Shown here: positions 10,294 to 63,678 of the stretch, one piece after another
How the letters are laid out: each line of letters starts with the position of its first letter
Position numbering within the stretch: the stretch's first letter is position 1
DNA from: a virus
Taxonomy: Duplodnaviria; Caudoviricetes
IMG/VR virus record: IMGVR_UViG_3300044984_000411
Span: 307 to 64,306 of that record
DNA: 64,000 nucleotides
Direction: 5' to 3' (one strand)
Position numbers and translations under genes: made by a program
Notes under the pieces: model-generated
What the model was told of the DNA's origin: nothing
Seen by the model: only the letters and a program-made list of their open reading frames with translations
Databases searched by the model: none

Positions 10294-13200
10294 TAAATAC
10301 ATCCTCCATAATTGTTGTTCCGTCTTTAGTTTTACCCAAAGAGAATTTGTATACGTTTCCCTCGTCAATCTTCATGTAAGCCTTGGAGAAAGCCGTAGGG
10401 AATACTGTAACGCTGTGTAGCGTCCGTGTAGCGTCTGCTAGCACTAGGGAAGCCATCTTCTTACCTGTCTTGGTAATTCGTGGCTTGAATGATACCACAA
10501 AAAGTTCGTCCTCTTTGTATGGCAGCATACGGAAGTTAAGAATCTTAATCAATCCTGTTTGGTTTGCCTTGATTTCGTCTGCTGGAATTGCTGTAACAAT
10601 CCTGTTATCGCTTGCCAGCAAGATGTAAGTACGACCTGCCTCGATAGTTGACTGCTCTTCATCGAAGATACCAACACTACCAGTCTTATCTAGAATCTCA
10701 ACTCGTGACCAACCTTTGCCACGCTTGATACCCTTGACCATGCCCATTAGAATAAACGAACCTTTTTCCTCATACTCTTCTACGTCATTGATAAATGCGT
10801 GATAGTGCTGTGGAATTGATACGTTAAACTCTGGTAGGTTTAGGTATTCGTAAAGATTCTCTTTAACTTCTTCATCATTCCTAGGATTATCATCAAAAGT
10901 TGCAGCACCAATAAGACGAAGAGCTTGCAGGGCACGGCTATTAACACCATTGCCCTTGCCAAAACTAAACTCCTCAAGTTGTTTGTAGGAGCTAAAAGGG
11001 CGAGCAGCAATATACTTAGAAGCAATGTTGTCAGAAATGTATTTGATTGCTGAAAGTCCAAAGCGGATTCCCTTTCCTTCGATTGTAAAGTCAATGTCTG
11101 AGTCGTTGATGTGTGGTAGGCGGATAGGAATACCCATACGCTTTGCTTCGATTAGGTACTCTGTGCGAGCATCCTTATCACTTTCGTTCTTAAGCAATGA
11201 ATACATAAACTCAATTGGATAGTGATACTTCAACCATGCTGTCCAGTATGATAGCGTTGAGTATGCTACAGCGTGAGACTTGTTGAATGAGTACCCTGCG
11301 TGAGCCTCAAAGTCGTGCCACAAGTCTTCTGCAACGTTTGGAGATAGGAAGCGTGAAGCACCCTCAACAAACTTGTCTTGGAACTGCTTGAACTCTTTAG
11401 CATCCTTCTTCTTACCAATAATCTTGCGAACCTTGTCAGCCTCAGCCATTGTCATACCGCCAAGTTCAGTACAGGCAAGCATAACCTGTTCCTGATACAG
11501 AATGCATCCGTAGGTCTCTTCGGTAAACTTCTTCATGTTAACGTGCTTGTAGTCTAGGTTCTGCTTACCGTGCTTACGAGCAATGTAATCTTTACCAATG
11601 GTGTTCATAGCACCTGGGCGAACTAGAGCGTTGGATGCAGCAAGTTCGTTGAAGTTTTTGACACCCATTTTAACTAGCAAGTTGGTATATGGTGTAGCTT
11701 CACACTGGAACACGCCCTTAGTAAAACCGTCAGACAGCATAGCATAAACATTCTTGTCTTCCATATCAATCTTGTGTAAGTCAATCTTATCGTTGGTACG
11801 CTCCTCAACAATCTTGAGGGTGTCTTGAATAACAGATAGGGTCTTTAGACCTAGAGCATCAATCTTGATTAGACCAATACGCTCTGCTTCTTCCATGTCT
11901 ACCGCCACCACAGGGATACGCTCCTTATTGCCAGGACTAGTGCGTGTTTCTAGTGGTGCGAACTTAAAGATAGGCTCCTTGGACGTTACAACACCTGCAG
12001 CGTGGATACCAGTACCACGAATACGACCACGCAACTGCTCGCCATACTCTTCAATCTCTGGATATTTGTCACGGAACTCTGCAGTTGACTTAGATGTCAG
12101 ATACTCGTCCCAGTCGTCTACAAGTTTAAGTACCTTGTTAACGTCAGGTAGTGGAATGTTTAGAACACGAGCCACGTCACGAACGATACCCTTGCCCTTG
12201 AATTCAAGGAATGTTGCGATGGACGCAACGTGACGGTATTGACGAACTAGGTAGTCCTTAACTTCTTCACGGCGTGAGTCTTGGATATCTGTATCAATAT
12301 CTGGGAAGTCATTACGCTCTGGGTTAATGAAACGGAAAAACAGAAGACCATGCTGGATAGGGTCAACGTCTGTGATACCAAGAGAGTAGCAAAGCAGCGA
12401 ACCTGCAGCAGAACCACGTCCTGGTCCCACCATGATATCTTCTTTCTTAGCCCAGTTAATCATATTACGAACAACTAGAAAGTAAGGTCCAAACTTCTTG
12501 TCTTTGATAACAGAAAGCTCTTCATTAAGTCTGTCCAGATATTCTTTGTTGGTGTGTAGCCCACGCTTAGTAAGACCCTCAATGGCTAGTTCATATAGCT
12601 CTTGGTCTGGGTTAACATACTGTGCTGGAAGCAAATCTAGATTATCTTGAATCTCATAGTCTTCAATCTGGTCTGCAATGTCCTTGCTGTTCTGGTACAT
12701 ATCCTCACGGTCAATACCCTGAGCAAGCATAGCGTTACGCATCTCTTCGTCAGACAGTAGGTGAATTTCGAAGTCCTTAAACGACATCTGACGGTCTGCA
12801 CCATACAGGTAGTCTAGCTTATCCATAAGGTTGTCGTACTTCTGAGTGCCAGCGAAAGTTACTTCTTTCTCAGTTTTATTAGAGTATGAGTTTAGAATAA
12901 GCTTAAGTTCTTGGATATCACGCTGTGACTTGTCTGCGTGGTGGCAGTCTGGAGTTACGACAGGCTTAATTCCAAATTCATCTGCAAGGTCAAGCAGCAT
13001 CTTATTTACTTCTGCAGGGTTGTGTGGCATTACTTCGATGTAGTAGTCGTCACCAAAAGTATCCTTAGCCCACTTGATGTGCTCCTTAGCTACCGCCAGG
13101 TTGTCTGCTTCGATAGCCTTGCACAAGAATCCTGAAAGACATCCAGAAGTAATGACTAGACCTTCTTTGTACTGCTCTAGAATGTTCCAGTCCATACGAG

Positions 13201-57906: not shown

Positions 57907-58080
57907 TGTGGATAACCCTGTGTATAAAATCGTTATCTAAAAGTTATCATAAAATATGCTAAAAAGGGCTTGACAAACGTTCGGCGTATGGTACTATATA
58001 TATTAATAGATAGATAGATGATATATATAATATATAAATATATTAAACTATAAGATATATATTAAATATATAATAATAAT
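57907..58080. other. Putative replication origin (DnaA boxes plus AT-rich unwinding element)
   Basis: TGTGGATAA at 57907, TGTGTATAA at 57919, GTTAT-N6-GTTAT at 57932, near-pure A/T tract 57995-58083, close to the strand switch. Confidence 0.55.
57970..57997 (+). promoter_or_regulatory. Sigma70-type promoter pointing into the AT-rich tract
   Basis: TTGACA-N16-TACTAT with a TG extension. Confidence 0.55.
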
Positions 58081-58352
58081 TAATCGTCGGATTTCTTAGT
58101 TCTTGATGAAATTGTTCTTACACCTTGCGTAATTAACAAATCATATAGTTTATCTAGCTTTTCTTCTACAGCTTCAGTTCTTGATTCTAATCTAGTTACT
58201 TGGTCTTTCATAGAAGAACCACTATTAGGTTTCATTTCTTTCTTGATTTCATCGAAGTAGTGTTTGACTAACCATTTAACTCCTAGTCCTAGAGTTGTTA
58301 TGATTGTTGAAATACTTATGGTTAAAGCCAGGATTGATTCTATCATTGTCAT
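58080..58352 (-). CDS. Single-TM membrane protein (holin-like)
   Basis: N-terminal TM, PNSGSSMKDQVTRLE motif, coiled coil. Confidence 0.6.
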   Translation of the reverse strand: MTMIESILALTISISTIITTLGLGVKWLVKHYFDEIKKEMKPNSGSSMKDQVTRLESRTEAVEEKLDKLYDLLITQGVRTISSRTKKSDD

Positions 58353-58492: not shown

Positions 58493-58699
58493 ATGAAAGA
58501 TAACGGCGATGTCGAATTTTTAGACCTTTTTGACCCTAACCAACAAAAAGCAGACAGAGAACTAGTAGAGTCTCGTTTAGCAATTTGTAATACGTGTCCC
58601 TGGTTTGCCAAAAATTTGAAAAGATGTCGCAAATGTGGTTGTTTTATGAGATTGAAGACTACCCTTGTTCAAGCTAAGTGTCCTGTAGGACATTGGTAA
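58493..58699 (+). CDS. Cys-rich Zn-binding protein (DUF6171-like)
   Basis: RLAICNTC...CRKCGCFM..KT.L....CPVGHW, leaderless start. Confidence 0.7.
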   Translation: MKDNGDVEFLDLFDPNQQKADRELVESRLAICNTCPWFAKNLKRCRKCGCFMRLKTTLVQAKCPVGHW

Positions 58700-58862: not shown

Positions 58863-59088
58863 TACCCCCAAATCTGAAAATCTGAAAAATTTTATATTTG
58901 GCAAAATCTGAATATTTTGTAGAGATGAATGATACGAACCTACACTCATACGTATCCCAATTTTAGTGAGCACACATCCCCCTACGTACCTTTATAACGA
59001 ATTGGTAACATTGCAAAAATGTTTGTTGAAATGAACCAAAATGTCTCCCCTATCGTATAGACTTTAGATAACAAAGAAGGAGCAACAA

Positions 59089-59313
59089 ATGACCAGCATC
59101 GAGATTCTAATCGCAAGTTACTCAGTAGTATTCGTAGGCTTCGCTCTACTGTATGCAATCGCTTTGCCTATCTCTCTAGCACTTGAGTCAGTCGGCAAGC
59201 GTATCGCTAACAAGCGTTCAGTTGCATACCGCCTAGCAAACCAGTGTAAAGGTATCACCAAAAAGGGTGAGCAATGCCTAAACTGGTTAGACTGCCCTCA
59301 CCACAGCAACTAA
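59089..59313 (+). CDS. Membrane protein with C-terminal Cys/His Zn motif
   Basis: N-terminal TM, CKGITKKGEQC...CPHH, AAGGAG RBS. Confidence 0.7.
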   Translation: MTSIEILIASYSVVFVGFALLYAIALPISLALESVGKRIANKRSVAYRLANQCKGITKKGEQCLNWLDCPHHSN

Positions 59314-59441
59314 GCGACACGCCCAATGAATGGACTTGACAAATCCAGGATTTTGGGGGCACCCATTTTGTTACCAAACTGTTACATAAGATATACGTCA
59401 AAACTTCCCTAAATGTCTGTCCTATCCTGTAGACTATAGCC

Positions 59442-59510
59442 ATGAACGAAAACGAAGACTACTCAGCAGAAAACCCTTGTGACGACATCGATTGCCTATG
59501 GTGTAACTAA
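59442..59510 (+). CDS. Leaderless 22-aa acidic Cys peptide
   Basis: MNENEDYSAENPCDDIDCLWCN, ATG 6 nt after TAGACT. Confidence 0.5.
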   Translation: MNENEDYSAENPCDDIDCLWCN

Positions 59511-59620
59511 TGCGTAACCTAATGGATGACTTGACCATTGTGATAATGGTTACCCTCGCTAGTGTGCTAGTGCTAGGCAGCGTTAGCCTACTACTATGGG
59601 CAGCAGGGCTTATCCCCTAG
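59510..59620 (+). CDS. Small TM peptide (36 aa)
   Basis: MRNLMDDLTIVIMVTLASVLVLGSVSLLLWAAGLIP, TAATG coupling to the previous ORF. Confidence 0.55.
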   Translation: MRNLMDDLTIVIMVTLASVLVLGSVSLLLWAAGLIP

Positions 59621-59805
59621 GGCTACCAGGGCGACACGCCCGACAGCGTGGGGGTGCCCCAAAATCTGGGCTTTTGTCAATACGACACGCCGTTAAGTTT
59701 GATAACAATTTTCCCCCAAATCGTTACATTTATTTGGCGTGTTTGGTAATAAATGTCTGTGCTATGGTATAGACTGATAACAACAAGGAAGCAAAGGACA
59801 GAAAA

Positions 59806-59976
59806 ATGACAGTAGACCTAGAGTATGTAGCAAACCTAGTAGCACAGTTGAACGCAGACAAGATTGAGCGTGATAACATAGCACTTGCCGATGCAATGAC
59901 TCCTGAGCAATACCCAGACTGCAACCAGTGTGGAGCGGTTATCGATGACTCATTCGGTTGCTACTTTTGTGACTAA
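59806..59976 (+). CDS. Small Zn-finger protein (56 aa)
   Basis: CNQC...CYFC, AAGGA RBS, own promoter at 59751. Confidence 0.65.
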   Translation: MTVDLEYVANLVAQLNADKIERDNIALADAMTPEQYPDCNQCGAVIDDSFGCYFCD

Positions 59977-60023
59977 ATGTCCGTGGCTAATGCTAAACTA
60001 AAAACATCAAGAAAGGATAACTA

Positions 60024-60161
60024 ATGTTTGTTTGTGTATTTTGTGAGAGAACCTTCAACCTCGCTCCACACTCTTGCCCTAACTGCAATGACTACAAAGG
60101 GCTAATGACTATTGCTGATGCGGTTGCTGAGTATGACTGGTTAGACTACTTAGTAGCCTAG
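60024..60161 (+). CDS. Small Zn-ribbon protein (45 aa)
   Basis: CVFC...CPNCNDYKG, AAAGGA RBS. Confidence 0.65.
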   Translation: MFVCVFCERTFNLAPHSCPNCNDYKGLMTIADAVAEYDWLDYLVA

Positions 60162-60314
60162 CCTATCCGCTACCCTGGCGACACGCCCGACAGCGTGGGG
60201 GCACCGCCTGTGGATAACTCTGTGGATAACTGCGTTATGTAACTGTTATAAAAACCCCCAACTTTTTGGCGTGTCGTGTAGATAAATGTCTGGCGTGTGT
60301 GATAGGTTATAGGT

Positions 60315-60428
60315 ATGGAAAGAAAAGCAGAAATGGGTTGGGCAGGGCTAGCCCTTGCTCTATCTATCGTTATCGTAATCGCTACCGCTGTAGTCTCAGG
60401 CTTGGCTTGGGCTAGCGGTCTAATCTAA
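60315..60428 (+). CDS. Leaderless small TM peptide (37 aa)
   Basis: MERKAEMGWAGLALALSIVIVIATAVVSGLAWASGLI. Confidence 0.55.
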   Translation: MERKAEMGWAGLALALSIVIVIATAVVSGLAWASGLI

Positions 60429-60437
60429 GGAAACAAA

Positions 60438-60581
60438 ATGAACGCTGTAATCAACGCAACCCTAACCCTTTCTCTAGCGAAAGAAAACCTAGAGAAACTA
60501 ATCGCTATGGGTCTTGATACTGATGAAGACTATGACCAAGTGTATTGGGCAGAGCAAGAGCTAAAGCGTCTCTCTCGCTAA
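60438..60581 (+). CDS. Small helical protein (47 aa), paralog of 61876-62019
   Basis: MNAVINATLTLSLAKENLEKLIAMGLDTDEDYDQVYWAEQELKRLSR. Confidence 0.7.
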   Translation: MNAVINATLTLSLAKENLEKLIAMGLDTDEDYDQVYWAEQELKRLSR

Positions 60582-60622
60582 TACCCCACCAGGGCGACAC
60601 GCCCGACAGCGTGGGGTGCCCT

Positions 60623-60638
60623 TCGAACAGAATTTCGA
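60623..60638. promoter_or_regulatory. Actinobacterial-type SOS (LexA) box, 1 mismatch
   Basis: TCGAAC-AGAA-TTTCGA versus consensus TCGAAC-N4-GTTCGA. Confidence 0.45.
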
Positions 60639-60716
60639 ATGTAACACTTACGTAACGAATTAAATTTCTCCCAAATTTTTTGCCAAAATGTCTGTGCAAA
60701 CTGATAGTCTATACCT

Positions 60717-61073
60717 ATGAAAACCTGCAAAGAATGCCTAGCCACCAAGCCCCTCGCTGACTTCTCTAAGGCTAGTGGTGGCAACTACTACCGAACCGAG
60801 TGCAAGGCTTGCTCTAACGCTATGACCAAAGAGCGTAATGCTCTACGCAAGCAGTATGGTATGCCTAACGCTGGCTACGCTTGCCCTATCTGCCAGAGAG
60901 TAGAGAACGAGATTGTTGGTGAGGGCGGTAACGCTGGTGCTTGGGTTCTTGACCACGACCACGCTTCTGGTGAGTTTCGTGGTTGGCTATGCCACAAGTG
61001 CAATCGTGGTCTGGGAGCATTTGAAGACCAACTGCCACGCCTATTGCGAGCAATCGAATACTTATCAAAGTAG
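60717..61073 (+). CDS. Recombination endonuclease VII-family (His-Me) nuclease
   Basis: CKEC/CKAC N-terminus, CPIC...LDHDH..GEFRGWLCHKCNRGLG. Leaderless start. Confidence 0.88.
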   Translation: MKTCKECLATKPLADFSKASGGNYYRTECKACSNAMTKERNALRKQYGMPNAGYACPICQRVENEIVGEGGNAGAWVLDHDHASGEFRGWLCHKCNRGLGAFEDQLPRLLRAIEYLSK

Positions 61074-61203
61074 CGACACGCCGATGCCAGAGCTTGACAA
61101 ACCTGGCAAAATCGGGGCACCCCAAAAATAACGAAATGGTAACGATTTACGTAACACGATTATTTTCTCCCAAAATGTCTGACCTGTCTGATAGACTGCA
61201 GGT

Positions 61204-61329
61204 ATGCAAATCGAAATCATCACCCCAGAGGGTCGCTCCGCTATCATCCCTAACACCGAAGCCAACTTGCGTTGGGCAAAGAAACTTTTTGCTCAGGGCT
61301 TTCTTCAGTCTTGGGAAATCCTAAAGTAA
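61204..61329 (+). CDS. Leaderless small protein (41 aa)
   Basis: MQIEIITPEGRSAIIPNTEANLRWAKKLFAQGFLQSWEILK. Confidence 0.6.
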   Translation: MQIEIITPEGRSAIIPNTEANLRWAKKLFAQGFLQSWEILK

Positions 61330-61376
61330 AATGTCCGCCCCCTATGCTAAACTCAAACCAATCGAAAGGTAACAAA

Positions 61377-61535
61377 ATGGAAACAGCACTAGCAGACTTG
61401 ACCCTAAAGCAAGCAAAACTAAAACTCAACTCACTCGTTCGTGAAGCCGAGAACCTTGACTACCTCTCACACGCAGAACTAGATTTTATGCTAGCCCTCG
61501 TTCGCCACATCCAGAAACTAGGGGGAACGGTCTAA
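61377..61535 (+). CDS. Small helical protein (52 aa)
   Basis: METALADLTLKQ... with a GAAAGGT RBS. Confidence 0.65.
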   Translation: METALADLTLKQAKLKLNSLVREAENLDYLSHAELDFMLALVRHIQKLGGTV

Positions 61536-61604
61536 ATGTCTGTGGTCATTGGTAGCCTAATCCTAATCGCTCTTATCGCTCTCTTCAATCAGTAAAGGAA
61601 AAAA

Positions 61605-61727
61605 ATGTCACCTACACTTTCTTGGATTCTATTCCTCTCAATGGGCTGGGCTACTTATGCTTGGTATAAGTCAATGGTCATCAAGTCACTAGAGGAGGAG
61701 TTGGAACGGAATAAGCCACCGTTCTAG
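61605..61727 (+). CDS. Small TM protein ending in PPF (40 aa)
   Basis: MSPTLSWILFLSMGWATYAWYKSMVIKSLEEELERNKPPF with an AAAGGA RBS. Confidence 0.6.
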   Translation: MSPTLSWILFLSMGWATYAWYKSMVIKSLEEELERNKPPF

Positions 61728-61875
61728 CTCTACCCTGGCGACACGCCCGACAGCGTGGGGTGCCCCCGATAACGTTTTGGTAACGGTTTAAGTAACAAGC
61801 CAAAAAACCCCCTGTTTTGGTAAATAAATGTCCGTGGTTCGTGTTACCTTATAGGTAGACAGAAAGAAGGAATAA

Positions 61876-62019
61876 ATGAAGAAAGCACTTGACGCAAAAC
61901 TAGCCCTAGACCTAGCCATTGAGAACCTAGGCAAACTAATCGCCCTAGGCATTGACACGCCTGAAGACTATGACGAGGTTCACTGGCTTCAGTTTCAGTT
62001 TGACAAACTAAATAAATAA
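61876..62019 (+). CDS. Small helical protein (47 aa), paralog of 60438-60581
   Basis: MKKALDAKLALDLAIENLGKLIALGIDTPEDYDEVHWLQFQFDKLNK. Confidence 0.7.
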   Translation: MKKALDAKLALDLAIENLGKLIALGIDTPEDYDEVHWLQFQFDKLNK

Positions 62020-62071
62020 ATGTCTGTGGCATCCGCTAAACTGTAAGTAACCAAAAGAAATGAGAAATGAA

Positions 62072-62227
62072 ATGACCGAAACCCCAACTCTAACCCAACT
62101 CGTTGAATACGCAATGGAACGCTATGGCTTCAACATCGATACCGCTTACATTTATGTTGCTGGTTCGTTGTTTGCCGTAGCGGACGATGAGGGTAAGCAG
62201 TTGGTTGCCAGAGCAATGGGCAAATAA
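62072..62227 (+). CDS. Small protein (51 aa)
   Basis: MTETPTLTQLVEYAMERYGFNIDTAYIYVAGSLFAV..., own promoter at 62018. Confidence 0.6.
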   Translation: MTETPTLTQLVEYAMERYGFNIDTAYIYVAGSLFAVADDEGKQLVARAMGK

Positions 62228-62334
62228 GTTTTAGGGGTAGCAAGAGCCTAGCAAATAATCCGTAATGGTGAGCCTAGCAAATAAATGTCTGCCCCTAATG
62301 GTAACCTGTAACTACAAACAAGAAAGGGCAACTA

Positions 62335-62502
62335 ATGCCAAAACCAAGAATGACCAAAAGCGAAAAGGTTTTTATGGATGAACTTCACCCTATAATCTGG
62401 CACAAGGGAGCAACTACCCTTGCCGAAAGCGAAACCTATAAGCAACTGCCTGAAGCGGTTAGACAGGCTTACCTTCAGTTGCTAATCACCAAGACACGAT
62501 AG
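62335..62502 (+). CDS. Small protein (55 aa)
   Basis: MPKPRMTKSEKVFMDELHPIIWHKG... with a GAAAGGG RBS. Confidence 0.6.
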   Translation: MPKPRMTKSEKVFMDELHPIIWHKGATTLAESETYKQLPEAVRQAYLQLLITKTR

Positions 62503-62656
62503 TTATCCACAGGGTAGCGAAAGTTATCCACAGGGGGCACCCCAGGTAACGATTTGGTAACAGTTTACGTTACCGATTAAAAATGTCCCGAAATGTCTCC
62601 CAAAATAATAATAAATGTCTGAGGTGGCTGTTAGACTTACTTCGTAAGTTGATTGA

Positions 62657-62902
62657 TTGGAGTTCCCCTTGACCCTTAGCCCAAACCTGCTCTTTGTGAG
62701 CCAGACCATCCAGACCTACCCCACCTTTGCCCAAGCCTACGCAGACGGCAAGAACATCAAAAACTTTGGCTTATGCGAACACTTTCAGGTTGCTCGCCGT
62801 TTTTCTAACTCTGGCATTGTCTATCGCCTGACCCTGCTGAACAAGAATGAAGCAACCTACAACACCCTTGACCTATCACCAAACTACCCAAACGCTAACT
62901 AA
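62657..62902 (+). CDS. Hypothetical protein
   Basis: Track ORF. TTG start at 62657, or at 62669 after GGAG. Confidence 0.55.
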   Translation: MEFPLTLSPNLLFVSQTIQTYPTFAQAYADGKNIKNFGLCEHFQVARRFSNSGIVYRLTLLNKNEATYNTLDLSPNYPNAN

Positions 62903-62911
62903 GGAGAACCT

Positions 62912-63049
62912 ATGCCAAGCATCAAACTAACCAAAGACGAGAGCCGTATTCACGAGTGCCAACTCTGTGGCGGTTCTGCCAAGTTTTATCTTGTTCGCAA
63001 GATTGCTCCCTCAATGTTTTTGTGTGGACTTTGCGTTCGCCCTGCCTAG
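62912..63049 (+). CDS. Small Zn-finger protein (45 aa)
   Basis: CQLC...CGLC, AAGGAG RBS. Confidence 0.65.
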   Translation: MPSIKLTKDESRIHECQLCGGSAKFYLVRKIAPSMFLCGLCVRPA

Positions 63050-63176
63050 CAGGTAGCGACACGCCAGGGGGGGCACCCCGATTCGTTACCAAAACGTTAT
63101 TAAATAGGTTTAAGACTATTCCCCAAAATGTCTGTGGGTCTTGTTATACTTGGGGTATTCACGAAAGGACATCTCT

Positions 63177-63335
63177 ATGGACACCTCTAACCTTTACTAC
63201 GGCGACGACTTCGGCTACTTTGAGGAGGAAGAACTCACTCCAGAGGAACGCAAAGCCGAAGACAAGGCTTGGATGCAACAGCAGTTGCAAGAAGCCTACG
63301 CAGAGTTCCTAGACGCTCCTAACTGCTTCGACTGA
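63177..63335 (+). CDS. Small acidic protein (52 aa)
   Basis: MDTSNLYYGDDFGYFEEEELTPEE... with a GAAAGGA RBS. Confidence 0.6.
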   Translation: MDTSNLYYGDDFGYFEEEELTPEERKAEDKAWMQQQLQEAYAEFLDAPNCFD

Positions 63336-63455
63336 GGCAGGGAGCTGGGGGCACCCCGAATAACGGTTTGATAACACTTTACGTAGTGTATTAAAAAGCA
63401 CCCGAATAAATGTCTGTGGCTAATGCTAAAATGTAACTACAACGAAAGGATAACT

Positions 63456-63629
63456 ATGCGAAACACAATGAACATTTATGTAGTCGAAATGGACAACGGC
63501 TCTACCCTTGAGATTGAGGCTCCACTAGAGAACGAGGTTCAACTAGATTGGCTCATTGACGCATACTACAAAGGTCGTATCGCTCGCTTTTGGGTAAATG
63601 GCGTTGAGTGGCAAGAGCCTACAGAATAA
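63456..63629 (+). CDS. Small acidic protein (57 aa)
   Basis: MRNTMNIYVVEMDNG... with a GAAAGGA RBS. Confidence 0.6.
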   Translation: MRNTMNIYVVEMDNGSTLEIEAPLENEVQLDWLIDAYYKGRIARFWVNGVEWQEPTE

Positions 63630-63678
63630 ATGTCTGTAGGTATTGGTAAACTGTAATCACGATGAAAGGTAAAAACTA

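Follow-up and report, generated by a model that had tools for sequence, protein, structure and literature searches.

Repeated arrays of host-regulator-like boxes upstream of promoters in the presumed early region of a lake-water phage

Why do the junctions between small genes in one block of a phage genome repeatedly carry boxes that resemble the binding sites of actinobacterial regulators? This question is raised by the virus record IMGVR_UViG_3300044984_000411 (Duplodnaviria; Caudoviricetes), of which a stretch of 64,000 nucleotides (nt), positions 307 to 64,306, was analyzed; this stretch, hereafter the window, is nearly all of the 64,306-base IMG/VR record. A first-pass annotation had noted (G/A)TAAC-N6-(G/A)TAAC direct repeats, DnaA boxes, GACAC-containing boxes and an SOS-like box at the junctions between 58994 and 63375, and had proposed that the phage either wires its early cassettes to the replication, division and SOS state of the host or titrates the regulators concerned, stalling the host cell cycle. 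The sites exist, are conserved in related virus contigs and are positioned relative to promoters. They are best explained as the upstream regulatory regions of about ten repeated cassettes of small, presumed early genes, whose promoters may be wired to host regulators as a sensor rather than a decoy, a reading on which our confidence is evenly divided for and against.

Box arrays and promoters at the gene junctions

Both strands of the window were searched for each box, with 100 dinucleotide shuffles of the window as control. The RTAAC-N6-RTAAC pattern (R being A or G) occurs 12 times, whereas the shuffles average 0.63 and peak at 4, none of the 100 reaching 12; all nine positions described previously were recovered, along with three further matches (Table 1). 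The GACAC-containing box proved to be the 9-mer CGACACGCC, present exactly at each of its nine reported positions, all inside 59315–63057, with no copy in the remaining 57.8 kilobases (kb) of the window. Allowing one mismatch raises the count to 14, whereas the shuffles average 3.31 and never exceed 8. The bare GACAC 5-mer occurs 90 times in the window, which makes the presence of this core in all nine copies trivial.

Six exact copies of the DnaA box TTATCCACA are present in the 64 kb, where about 0.7 would be expected from base composition. The two perfect pairs described earlier are real (60209/60221 with a gap of 3 base pairs (bp) and 62503/62524 with a gap of 12 bp), and a third pair, made up of an exact box at 57907 and one with a single mismatch at 57919, again has a gap of 3 bp. 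Five exact copies, all agreeing with the DnaA consensus TT(A/T)TNCACA, lie in non-coding DNA between 57907 and 62532. The SOS-like box at 60623 also exists (TCGAACAGAATTTCGA, one mismatch from TCGAAC-N4-GTTCGA), but it is not significant in the window alone: three matches with up to two mismatches were found against a mean of 0.90, and 9 of the 100 shuffles reach three.

These boxes are parts of one module that is repeated ten times at 58994–63432 (J1 to J10 in Table 1), with a related module at 57907–57997 (J0). The module opens with a stop codon at its 5' end; CGACACGCC or, in its stead, two DnaA boxes come next, and a GC box, RTAAC units, a T-rich stretch ending in CCC(C)AAA, and a promoter follow in that order. 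The GC box, GGGG(C/T)(A/G)CCC(C), found at eight junctions, and the promoter motif AAATGTCYG (Y being C or T) are parts beyond those previously listed. The CGACACGCC slot takes three forms: the box may lie in the 21-mer CGACACGCCCGACAGCGTGGG (four junctions), may stand 11–12 nt before TTGACA (two junctions), or may be replaced by a DnaA-box pair. The RTAAC units number two or three, are placed 11–12 bp apart and occur in either orientation; nine junction arrays have the 11-bp spacing, and in three of them a third unit follows at 12 bp.

A reading of the CGACACGCC/GC-box part as a terminator was rejected. Five of nine folds (z -0.4 to +0.3) were no better than shuffles, the two that stood out, at J5 (z -3.7) and J8 (z -3.0), had differing structures, and no terminator-like site was found in any junction. 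As there is neither a common hairpin nor a junction terminator, the boxes were treated as protein sites on DNA.

Table 1. Positions of junction boxes, promoters and further box matches in the window.
Feature	Position (strand)	Description
J0, boxes	57907..57997 (+)	Divergent region; DnaA boxes 57907-57915 (exact) and 57919-27 (1 mismatch) (-); RTAAC 57932-57947 (-)
J0, promoter	57970-57997	Canonical TTGACA-16-TACTAT; junction ~89% nucleotide identity in L004
J1	58994..59063 (+)	RTAAC pair 58994-59009 (+); gap 31 nt; AAATGTCT...TAGACT promoter 59039-59063
J2, 5' part	59315..59435 (+)	CGACACGCC 59315-23; TTGACA 59336-41; GC box 59355-64, GCACCC 17 bp past TTGACA
J2, 3' part		RTAAC pair 59370-85 (-); gap 27 nt; promoter 59411-35; ATG 6 nt on (leaderless)
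J3, 5' part	59632..59775 (+)	21-mer CGACACGCCCGACAGCGTGGG 59632-52; GC box 59650-60; inverted TTGACA 59675-80
J3, 3' part		Second CGACACGCC 59683-91, 2 nt from inverted TTGACA; single ATAAC/GTTAC 59702, 59723; promoter 59751-75
J4, 5' part	60179..60308 (+)	21-mer 60179-99; DnaA-box pair 60209-17, 60221-29 (-, gap 3 bp); RTAAC 60234-49 (-)
J4, 3' part		Reversed box GGCGTGTCG 60268-76, 9 nt before ATGTC; promoter 60284-308 (leaderless)
J5, 5' part	60595..60710 (+)	21-mer 60595-615; GC box 60613-21; SOS-like box 60623-38 (1 mismatch)
J5, 3' part		RTAAC pair 60641-56 (+); gap 31 nt; promoter 60686-710 (leaderless)
J6	61074..61197 (+)	CGACACGCC 61074-82; TTGACA 61094-99; GC box 61114-23; RTAAC 61128, 61139, 61151; promoter 61173-97 (leaderless)
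J7	61739..61850 (+)	21-mer 61739-59; GC box 61757-67; RTAAC 61769, 61780, 61792; promoter 61826-50
J8, 5' part	62503..62637 (+)	DnaA boxes 62503-11, 62524-32 (+); GC box 62533-43; orthologous junction in L004
J8, 3' part		RTAAC 62546, 62557; inverted GTTAC 62569; two partial AATGTC motifs; promoter 62613-37
J9	63057..63150 (+)	CGACACGCC 63057-65; GC box 63067-79; RTAAC 63085-100 (-); gap 27 nt; promoter 63126-50
J10	63347..63432 (+)	GC box 63347-57; RTAAC pair 63360-75 (+); gap 34 nt; promoter 63408-32
Further RTAAC-N6-RTAAC	57932	Intergenic, adjoins another DnaA box
Further RTAAC-N6-RTAAC	59503	At gene overlap
Further RTAAC-N6-RTAAC	51326	Coding
TTATCCACA, exact copies	60209(-), 60221(-), 62503(+), 62524(+), 57907(-), 47103(+)	

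Conservation was assessed through the DUF6171 protein encoded by the opening gene of the early block (58493–58699; 68 residues, cysteine-rich), an anchor with 192 relatives in IMG/VR, of which 80 loci (1,176,758 bases) were fetched; the reversed pattern of each box served as control. TTATCCACA was found 142 times against 8 in the control (in 49 of the 80 loci), CGACACGCC 205 times against 2 (in 65) and RTAAC-N6-RTAAC 289 times against 23 (in 73), so that the three main boxes are 12- to 100-fold over the control, and DnaA boxes paired with a 3-bp gap were found 16 times against none. The region from -3 kb to +10 kb around the anchor gene, 62% of the sequence, contains 138 of 142 TTATCCACA, 201 of 202 CGACACGCC and 277 of 289 RTAAC pairs. 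An exact 22-mer of the window is common to three relatives, with shared proteins that are merely 37–67% identical, and ATAACgttttgGTAAC of J7 is unchanged in the orthologous junction of the relatives L001 and L002. In a complete relative (G001; 92,924 bases), all seven CGACACGCC, eight of nine RTAAC pairs and three of six DnaA boxes lie at 10.7–16.0 kb, the first ~5 kb of a 15-kb block with 25 AATGTCYG motifs on one strand, and the remaining three DnaA boxes are clustered apart from these, in non-coding DNA at 310–351.

Within the window, 16 plus-strand copies of A(A/T)ATGTC(T/C)-N10-12-TAnnnT occur at 59039–63652, before almost each small gene or gene pair, and AAATGTCYG-N10/11-TAnnnT is read as a promoter that would be used by the host RNA polymerase. 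The promoters of the relatives have a good -35 element, TTGACA, immediately followed by ATGTC, a spacer and a TAnnnT -10 element; in the window ATGTCYG is kept, at about -29 to -23, and the -35 element is lost. Four of the 16 (59411, 60284, 60686 and 61173) have an ATG after 6 nt and therefore look leaderless; leaderless messages are common in Actinobacteria. Canonical sigma-70-type promoters were considered separately and rejected as a feature enriched in the region (13 against 11.0).

The placement of the boxes was then compared with 486 dereplicated ATGTC-type promoters of the family, defined by a regular expression. A promoter-like match lies up to 130 nt downstream of 146 of 270 sites, as against 208 of 1303 random nearby positions, and a promoter up to 130 nt upstream is found for only 3 of 273 RTAAC pairs, 1 of 188 CGACACGCC and 1 of 126 DnaA boxes. 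An RTAAC pair is present up to 140 nt upstream of 101 of the 486 promoters, and the reversed pattern of none. The gaps from pair to ATGTC are quantised, at 21–23, 31–34, 43 and 53–56 nt for one orientation and at 15–16, 25–27, 36–37, 47 and 58 nt for the opposite one, and the nine junction pairs of the window fit these classes (31, 31, 31, 34, 43 and 53 nt; 27, 27 and 36 nt). Since the steps are ~10.5–11 bp, array and promoter always share one helix face, which is the mark of an upstream activator site. For CGACACGCC, among promoter-near cases, the reversed box lies 7–10 nt before ATGTC, immediately 5' of the -35 element, in 22 of 39, and the forward box 15–17 nt before ATGTC in 13 of 43, while a -35-like hexamer follows within 5 nt in 79 of 191 unique contexts among the relatives.

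The phage, its probable host and the candidate readers of the boxes

In the best explanation the phage is presumed to be a lytic, WhiB-encoding actinophage of lake water and a distant relative of the Streptomyces cluster BE phages. The window has a G+C content of 35–47% and carries on its minus strand genes for replication (DnaE-like polymerase, DnaB-like helicase, DnaG-like primase, RecA and ribonucleotide reductase) and for the virion (portal, protease, capsid, a 2,756-residue tape-measure-like protein and collagen-like tail fibres), and about 22 small plus-strand genes fill the record from 58.4 kb onward. The polymerase is 56% and the capsid protein ~41% identical to those of cluster BE phages, which are 127–134-kb siphoviruses with terminal repeats of ~11 kb crowded with small genes (PMC5764925). 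DNA of the phage was detected in 23 lake-water metagenome runs, two of them possibly its source, and no DNA similarity to the early region was found within the phage collection. More distant relatives of the DUF6171 protein (35–50% identity) occur in T4-like cyanophages, Rhizobium phages and Stenotrophomonas phages. For 17 small proteins of the early region and its flanks, endonuclease VII and DUF6171 were the sole Pfam matches above the cut-off, with no DNA-binding domain among them.

The host is probably a low-G+C actinobacterium. It was taken as an actinobacterium because a WhiB-family protein, above the Pfam cut-off, is encoded by all five complete relatives (93–116 kb), and this supports the actinobacterial setting assumed in the first-pass annotation. 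The WhiB family is described as restricted to Actinobacteria and their phages (PMC6282962). The WhiB gene of G001 is distant from the early region, and no WhiB was found in the window (tblastn, best E 2.2). Phage-encoded Trans_reg_C, Bac_DnaA_C, HTH_WhiA and sigma region 2/4 domains were found in none of five records (that of the window and four complete relatives).

Two other features of the region were observed. Immediately 3' of the canonical J0 promoter, about 95 bp of near-pure (TA)n-like sequence (57985–58080) separate the virion genes from a minus-strand gene for a 90-residue membrane/coiled-coil protein (58080–58352). Two 47-residue paralogues are encoded at 60438–60581 (..ENLEKLIAMGLDTDEDYDQVYW..) and 61876–62019 (..ENLGKLIALGIDTPEDYDEVHW..), and as each stands behind its own promoter they represent a duplicated cassette.

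The likeness of the boxes to DnaA, MtrA, WhiA and LexA sites, as claimed at first pass, holds against published consensus sequences (PMC3353115; PMC10243135; PMC9380542). For the RTAAC box, the comparison is with the Corynebacterium glutamicum MtrA site, (A/G)TAACAATttn(A/G)TAACAAT; MtrA activates from a site upstream of -35 and represses near -10, and its targets include the betaine and proline carriers (PMC3353115). Across 244 dereplicated family sites, the commonest bases at the eight free positions are A, A, T, T, T and A, A, T, and the family consensus equals that of C. glutamicum at 8 of 8 free positions, with an A/G tie at one; in the sites of the window position 6 is frequently G. The consensus of the nitrogen regulator GlnR, gTnAc-n6-GaAAc, is of the same type. 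The S. coelicolor form of the MtrA site is given as (G/T)T(G/A)ACC-N5-GT(G/T)AC in PMC5650626, and GlnR and MtrA reportedly share sites in mycobacteria (PMC13718301). As putative binders of the RTAAC box GlnR and MtrA are indistinguishable, and the label "cell-cycle regulator" given to these sites was too narrow, as the box fits GlnR as well as MtrA.

As a stand-in for the host, we used a 1.3-Mb Actinomycetota metagenome-assembled genome (MAG; G006, 44–48% G+C) that contains a mis-binned relative of the phage. Structure comparison of its four OmpR-type regulators places them nearest to RegX3, PhoP/PrrA, MtrA (with a histidine kinase downstream) and GlnR. Between its genes, GTAAC-N6-GTAAC stands immediately upstream of glutamine synthetase, an ATAAC triple upstream of a glycine-betaine binding-protein (OpuAC) gene, and one RTAAC pair adjoins a branched-chain amino-acid permease. 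The strict GTAAC-N6-GTAAC is found upstream of glnA in 9 of 25 loci from G006 and its relatives, small freshwater Actinomycetota that represent a candidate host group; other close relatives have one-mismatch forms and four more distant ones have GTAAC-N6-GAAAC. Being present upstream of glnA in this group, GTAAC-N6-GTAAC can be called its glnA box. The clade also encodes WhiA in 16/16 genomes and LexA in 14/16 (15/15 and 13/15 when the unpublished genome G030 is left out). The MtrA-like gene of G006 (L110, 1151–1648) encodes 165 residues that align to M. tuberculosis MtrA in two stretches; ~60 residues are absent between the receiver and DNA-binding domains, by either an assembly fault or a shortened linker. 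Host identification through the capsid protein in genome bins was also attempted and discarded as uninformative, with its four matches spread over four MAGs that bear different names, one being Actinomycetota.

The DnaA-type pair has a counterpart in the same stand-in: the phage sequence GTTATCCACAgaGTTATCCACAGG, found at J4 and in L001–L003, is almost the same as TTATCCACAtgGTTATCCACAGG in the rpmH–dnaA spacer of G006.

For CGACACGCC the published model is WhiA, which recognizes GACAC upstream of -35 on either strand and is bridged by WhiB to sigma region 4; sepX, a WhiA/WhiB target, has a leaderless transcript (PMC10243135). This model fits the promoter-proximal boxes of the relatives and their phage WhiB. 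For the window itself the WhiA reading is weak: one of nine copies adjoins a working promoter, and three of nine adjoin TTGACA with the GC box at the -10 place. The earlier WhiA assignment is thus upheld as to the GACAC core but not as to the conserved box, which is a 9-mer found only once in the promoter-adjacent slot.

The S. venezuelae LexA motif is tCGAAC-N4-GNNCGa (PMC9380542). With up to one mismatch, LexA-type sites occur 10 times in the 80 loci, two of them perfect, where about two would be expected by arithmetic; eight of the ten are in non-coding junction regions, five of these directly before RTAAC units, and L004 has an orthologue of the 60623 box in the same slot. A direct repeat, GAGCCTAGCAAATAA, occurs twice, 23 bp apart, at 62244–62290 just 5' of a promoter in the window, and in L016 (~11340–11400) and L045 (~12900–12960) it flanks a LexA-type box.

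The GC box behaves differently. Here it is GGGGCACCC(C), also written GGGGCACCCC, at eight junctions from 59355 to 63357; elsewhere it is GGGGTCGGGC (GCCCGACCC) in L004, GGTCGCCCC in L001–L003 and GGGGCGACC in L002, and other loci differ again. Each genome has one version at many junctions, and a GC-rich 9-mer particular to the locus is repeated at least three times in 26 of 82 loci. Where TTGACA precedes, GCACCC of the GC box starts exactly 17 bp after it, at the -10 place, and the box may act as a pseudo-promoter or else bind a phage-specific factor. Because it differs between lineages and is repeated within each genome, it is probably read by a phage-encoded protein, with concerted evolution as the alternative. 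RTAAC, TTATCCACA and CGACACGCC are constant across lineages whose GC box varies, a contrast that would follow if the constant boxes are read by a host protein, which evolves slowly, and the GC box by a phage protein.

In the mechanism that we propose, each large junction would be a protein-site array upstream of a promoter for the host RNA polymerase. A GlnR/MtrA-type response regulator of the host, from the OmpR family, would recognize the RTAAC units, binding as head-to-tail dimers on one helix face in an upstream-activator position, and host DnaA would recognize the TTATCCACA pairs; perhaps WhiA (with WhiB) would act on CGACACGCC and LexA on the occasional TCGAAC-N4-GTTCGA, and probably a phage protein on the GC box. 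Early transcription would in this way be coupled to the nitrogen or envelope state, the replication state and the DNA-damage state of the host. The identities of the binders and of the host, the sign of the effect and the early timing are here what we infer. The first-pass annotation had left wiring and titration open, and wiring accounts better for phased RTAAC units upstream of promoters with almost no box downstream of them, as a pure decoy needs neither; it is this promoter-upstream, helix-phased geometry that favours a sensor over a decoy. A fuller version is tentative, and we would sooner doubt than accept it: throughout a clade of lytic freshwater actinophages, the first promoters might act as multi-input enhancers reading GlnR/MtrA (nitrogen and envelope), DnaA (replication), WhiA with the phage WhiB (division) and LexA (DNA damage), with a phage factor on the GC box, such that the strength with which infection starts is set by the state of a slow-growing, nutrient-limited host and the multiplying arrays drain its regulators.

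A number of observations weigh against this proposal. CheckV puts the completeness of the record at 60%, the window thus being part of a genome. The phasing rests on the regular expression by which promoters were defined, and the array is carried by 101 of the 486 family promoters only. The cultured Streptomyces phage Wakanda is without RTAAC arrays (one match against one in the control). In G006 itself RTAAC-N6-RTAAC shows no genome-wide enrichment (12 against 15 in the control, mostly coding), and the exact double DnaA-box pair is present in only 2 of 31 genomes of its clade. The link to this clade is based on WhiB, lake habitat, similar G+C and one mis-binned relative contig, and three of the four capsid-protein matches are in non-actinobacterial bins. 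In the window CGACACGCC is mostly far upstream, right after the stop codon, and its conserved unit of 9 or 21 nt is unexplained by the 5-base WhiA motif. At 60623 a T replaces a conserved G of the LexA motif and the box ends ~50 nt upstream of AAATGTCT, with no overlap with a recognisable promoter such as a LexA-repressed promoter would show. The lineage-specific GC box points also to a phage-encoded binder, a phage protein could read any of the boxes, and small phage regulators are frequently missed by Pfam.

Alternative explanations

These last points lead to the alternative that the boxes are operators for phage-encoded or virion-delivered proteins that time the switch from early to middle expression, their host likeness being coincidence or mimicry without binding. 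We consider this doubtful, yet it deserves serious attention. A GC box that is lineage-specific and repeated in each genome is what co-evolution with a phage protein predicts, the stoperators of cluster A mycobacteriophages provide a precedent, most early proteins are without a known family, and the arrays are present at part of the promoters only. It is less easily reconciled with the constancy of RTAAC, TTATCCACA and CGACACGCC while the GC box and the proteins vary, or with boxes that equal the published host consensus over more positions than the first-pass pattern required. The same boxes moreover stand at glnA and dnaA of the candidate host clade, OmpR-, DnaA- and WhiA-type domains are absent from all five records searched, and the presumed first promoters would have to fire before any phage protein exists.

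The boxes may instead be sites for replication or DNA handling, with DnaA boxes and 11-bp iterons forming lytic origins, or a T5-like complex for injection stop or anchoring in a terminal region. DnaA boxes beside phased direct repeats are the plan of an iteron origin, and the phage encodes a helicase and a primase with no recognised initiator. The 3-bp DnaA pairs of T5-like phages have the spacing seen at 60209/60221 and in the 16 family pairs (bioRxiv 10.1101/866236), and the ~11-kb terminal repeats of the cluster BE relatives are likewise crowded with small genes (PMC5764925). In the separate non-coding region of G001 (L092, 300–900), a 45-bp span next to AT-rich DNA holds one ATATCCACA besides three exact TTATCCACA; situated where the early block has its far end, it is a candidate for a lytic origin or for a site related to the DNA ends. 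The equivalent part of the present phage falls outside the window. For the junctions themselves such a role is improbable: arrays occur at at least nine of them, each phased to a promoter, whereas a stop signal would be one locus, and so would an iteron-type origin, with its iterons, DnaA boxes and AT-rich DNA together. At most junctions the RTAAC array is not accompanied by DnaA boxes, and the T5 model is itself a proposal. In phage Wakanda, TTRTCCACA occurs seven times against none in the control, and three TTATCCACA lie within 270 bp (NC_070785.1, 119039–119315), two of them head-to-head and 3 bp apart.

A decoy function, in which multicopy junctions titrate DnaA, MtrA/GlnR, WhiA and LexA and so stall the host cell cycle, with promoter control secondary, is quite improbable in our judgment. 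Each genome would supply nine arrays of two or three units, five exact early-region DnaA boxes and nine CGACACGCC, site copies would increase with replication, and the datA cluster of DnaA boxes in E. coli is able to titrate DnaA. Titration has no need, however, of helix-phased spacing to promoters, of a placement upstream of promoters only, or of the confinement to the initial ~5 kb of the early region that G001 shows. With its own DnaE, DnaB-like helicase, DnaG-like primase and RecA the phage would depend on the host cycle to a limited extent, and the host would already be committed once copy number is high.

Cassettes of the early region are shuffled. In L004, at 80–97% nucleotide identity to the window, they are reordered with breaks at the junctions, and lake-water contigs join promoter module to promoter module, dropping whole cassettes: a joint of 60696 to 61187 removes the endonuclease VII gene (60717–61073) in two of four runs, one of 59033 to 59410 is seen in one of four, and a further one connects 60014 to 63263. 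These variants were read from assembled Logan contigs of the four runs, which end at junction repeats, and uncovered parts carry no meaning. That the boxes are nothing but substrates or scars of such recombination between mobile regulatory cassettes, similar to the promoter early stem-loop elements (PeSLs) of T4-type phages and without factor-specific meaning beyond promoter and terminator, is nevertheless hardly credible, as shuffling explains the likeness of the modules but not their match to host consensus sites, their exactness across lineages with 37–67% protein identity or their phasing to promoters, and the stem-loop terminator that defines PeSLs is absent.

Significance and comparison with known systems

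If host factors bind these arrays, the sensing of host state by phages of slow-growing, streamlined freshwater actinobacteria would become testable, and the arrays would provide a sequence-based host clue for uncultured phages as well as natural GlnR/MtrA-responsive promoter parts. If a phage protein binds instead, the family would be a case of operators that mimic host sites.

Among known systems, the cluster A mycobacteriophage stoperators are short asymmetric boxes at many gene junctions, with a sequence that differs between lineages. The GC box is likewise repeated at junctions and lineage-specific; unlike the stoperators it has no repressor identified, the parts of the phage seen have no sign of lysogeny, and in several junctions it lies exactly 17 bp after TTGACA, at the -10 place.

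Like the junctions, the PeSLs of T4-type phages (PMC2839356, PMC4122927) are repeated promoter modules bordering small variable genes, and breaks at them allow cassettes to be gained, lost or reordered. The junctions differ from them in having host-regulator-like boxes and no stem-loop terminator, and the phage lineage and host phylum are different.

The DnaA boxes of T5-like phages are described as "always in pairs separated by 3 bp" and lie in the terminal repeat that is injected first (bioRxiv 10.1101/866236). Similarly, TTATCCACA pairs 3 bp apart are found here in non-coding DNA, at the end presumed to be expressed first in a large lytic siphovirus, with conservation across its family. T5 however has eight boxes in one large untranslated region of inverted repeats, with a function that is itself a proposal, whereas the pairs described here lie in short intergenic junctions, upstream of promoters and beside RTAAC arrays, and the hosts are unrelated.

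The sepX promoter of Streptomyces venezuelae resembles the phage junctions in its GACAC box upstream of -35 on either strand, its leaderless transcript and its use of WhiB (PMC10243135). The phage unit in contrast is the 9-mer CGACACGCC, within a 21-mer at four junctions, and eight of its nine copies in the window are away from a working promoter; the phage WhiB is encoded by all five complete relatives and was not found in the window.

In layout the junctions resemble GlnR- and MtrA-activated promoters, which also have direct repeats of 11-bp period with an (A/G)TAAC half-site upstream of -35. Here such repeats occur instead in a lytic phage, at about ten consecutive promoters and in either orientation, often with three units of which the third stands at N7.

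Control of phage promoters by single host regulators is known, as with LexA in temperate phages and DnaA at lambda pR. Our literature search returned no paper linking actinophage promoters with MtrA, and a search on freshwater actinophages pointed to none either. What appears to be new is the repeated and conserved arrangement of putative sites for several global actinobacterial regulators, helix-phased to what are presumed to be the earliest promoters in a clade of lytic phages abundant in lakes.

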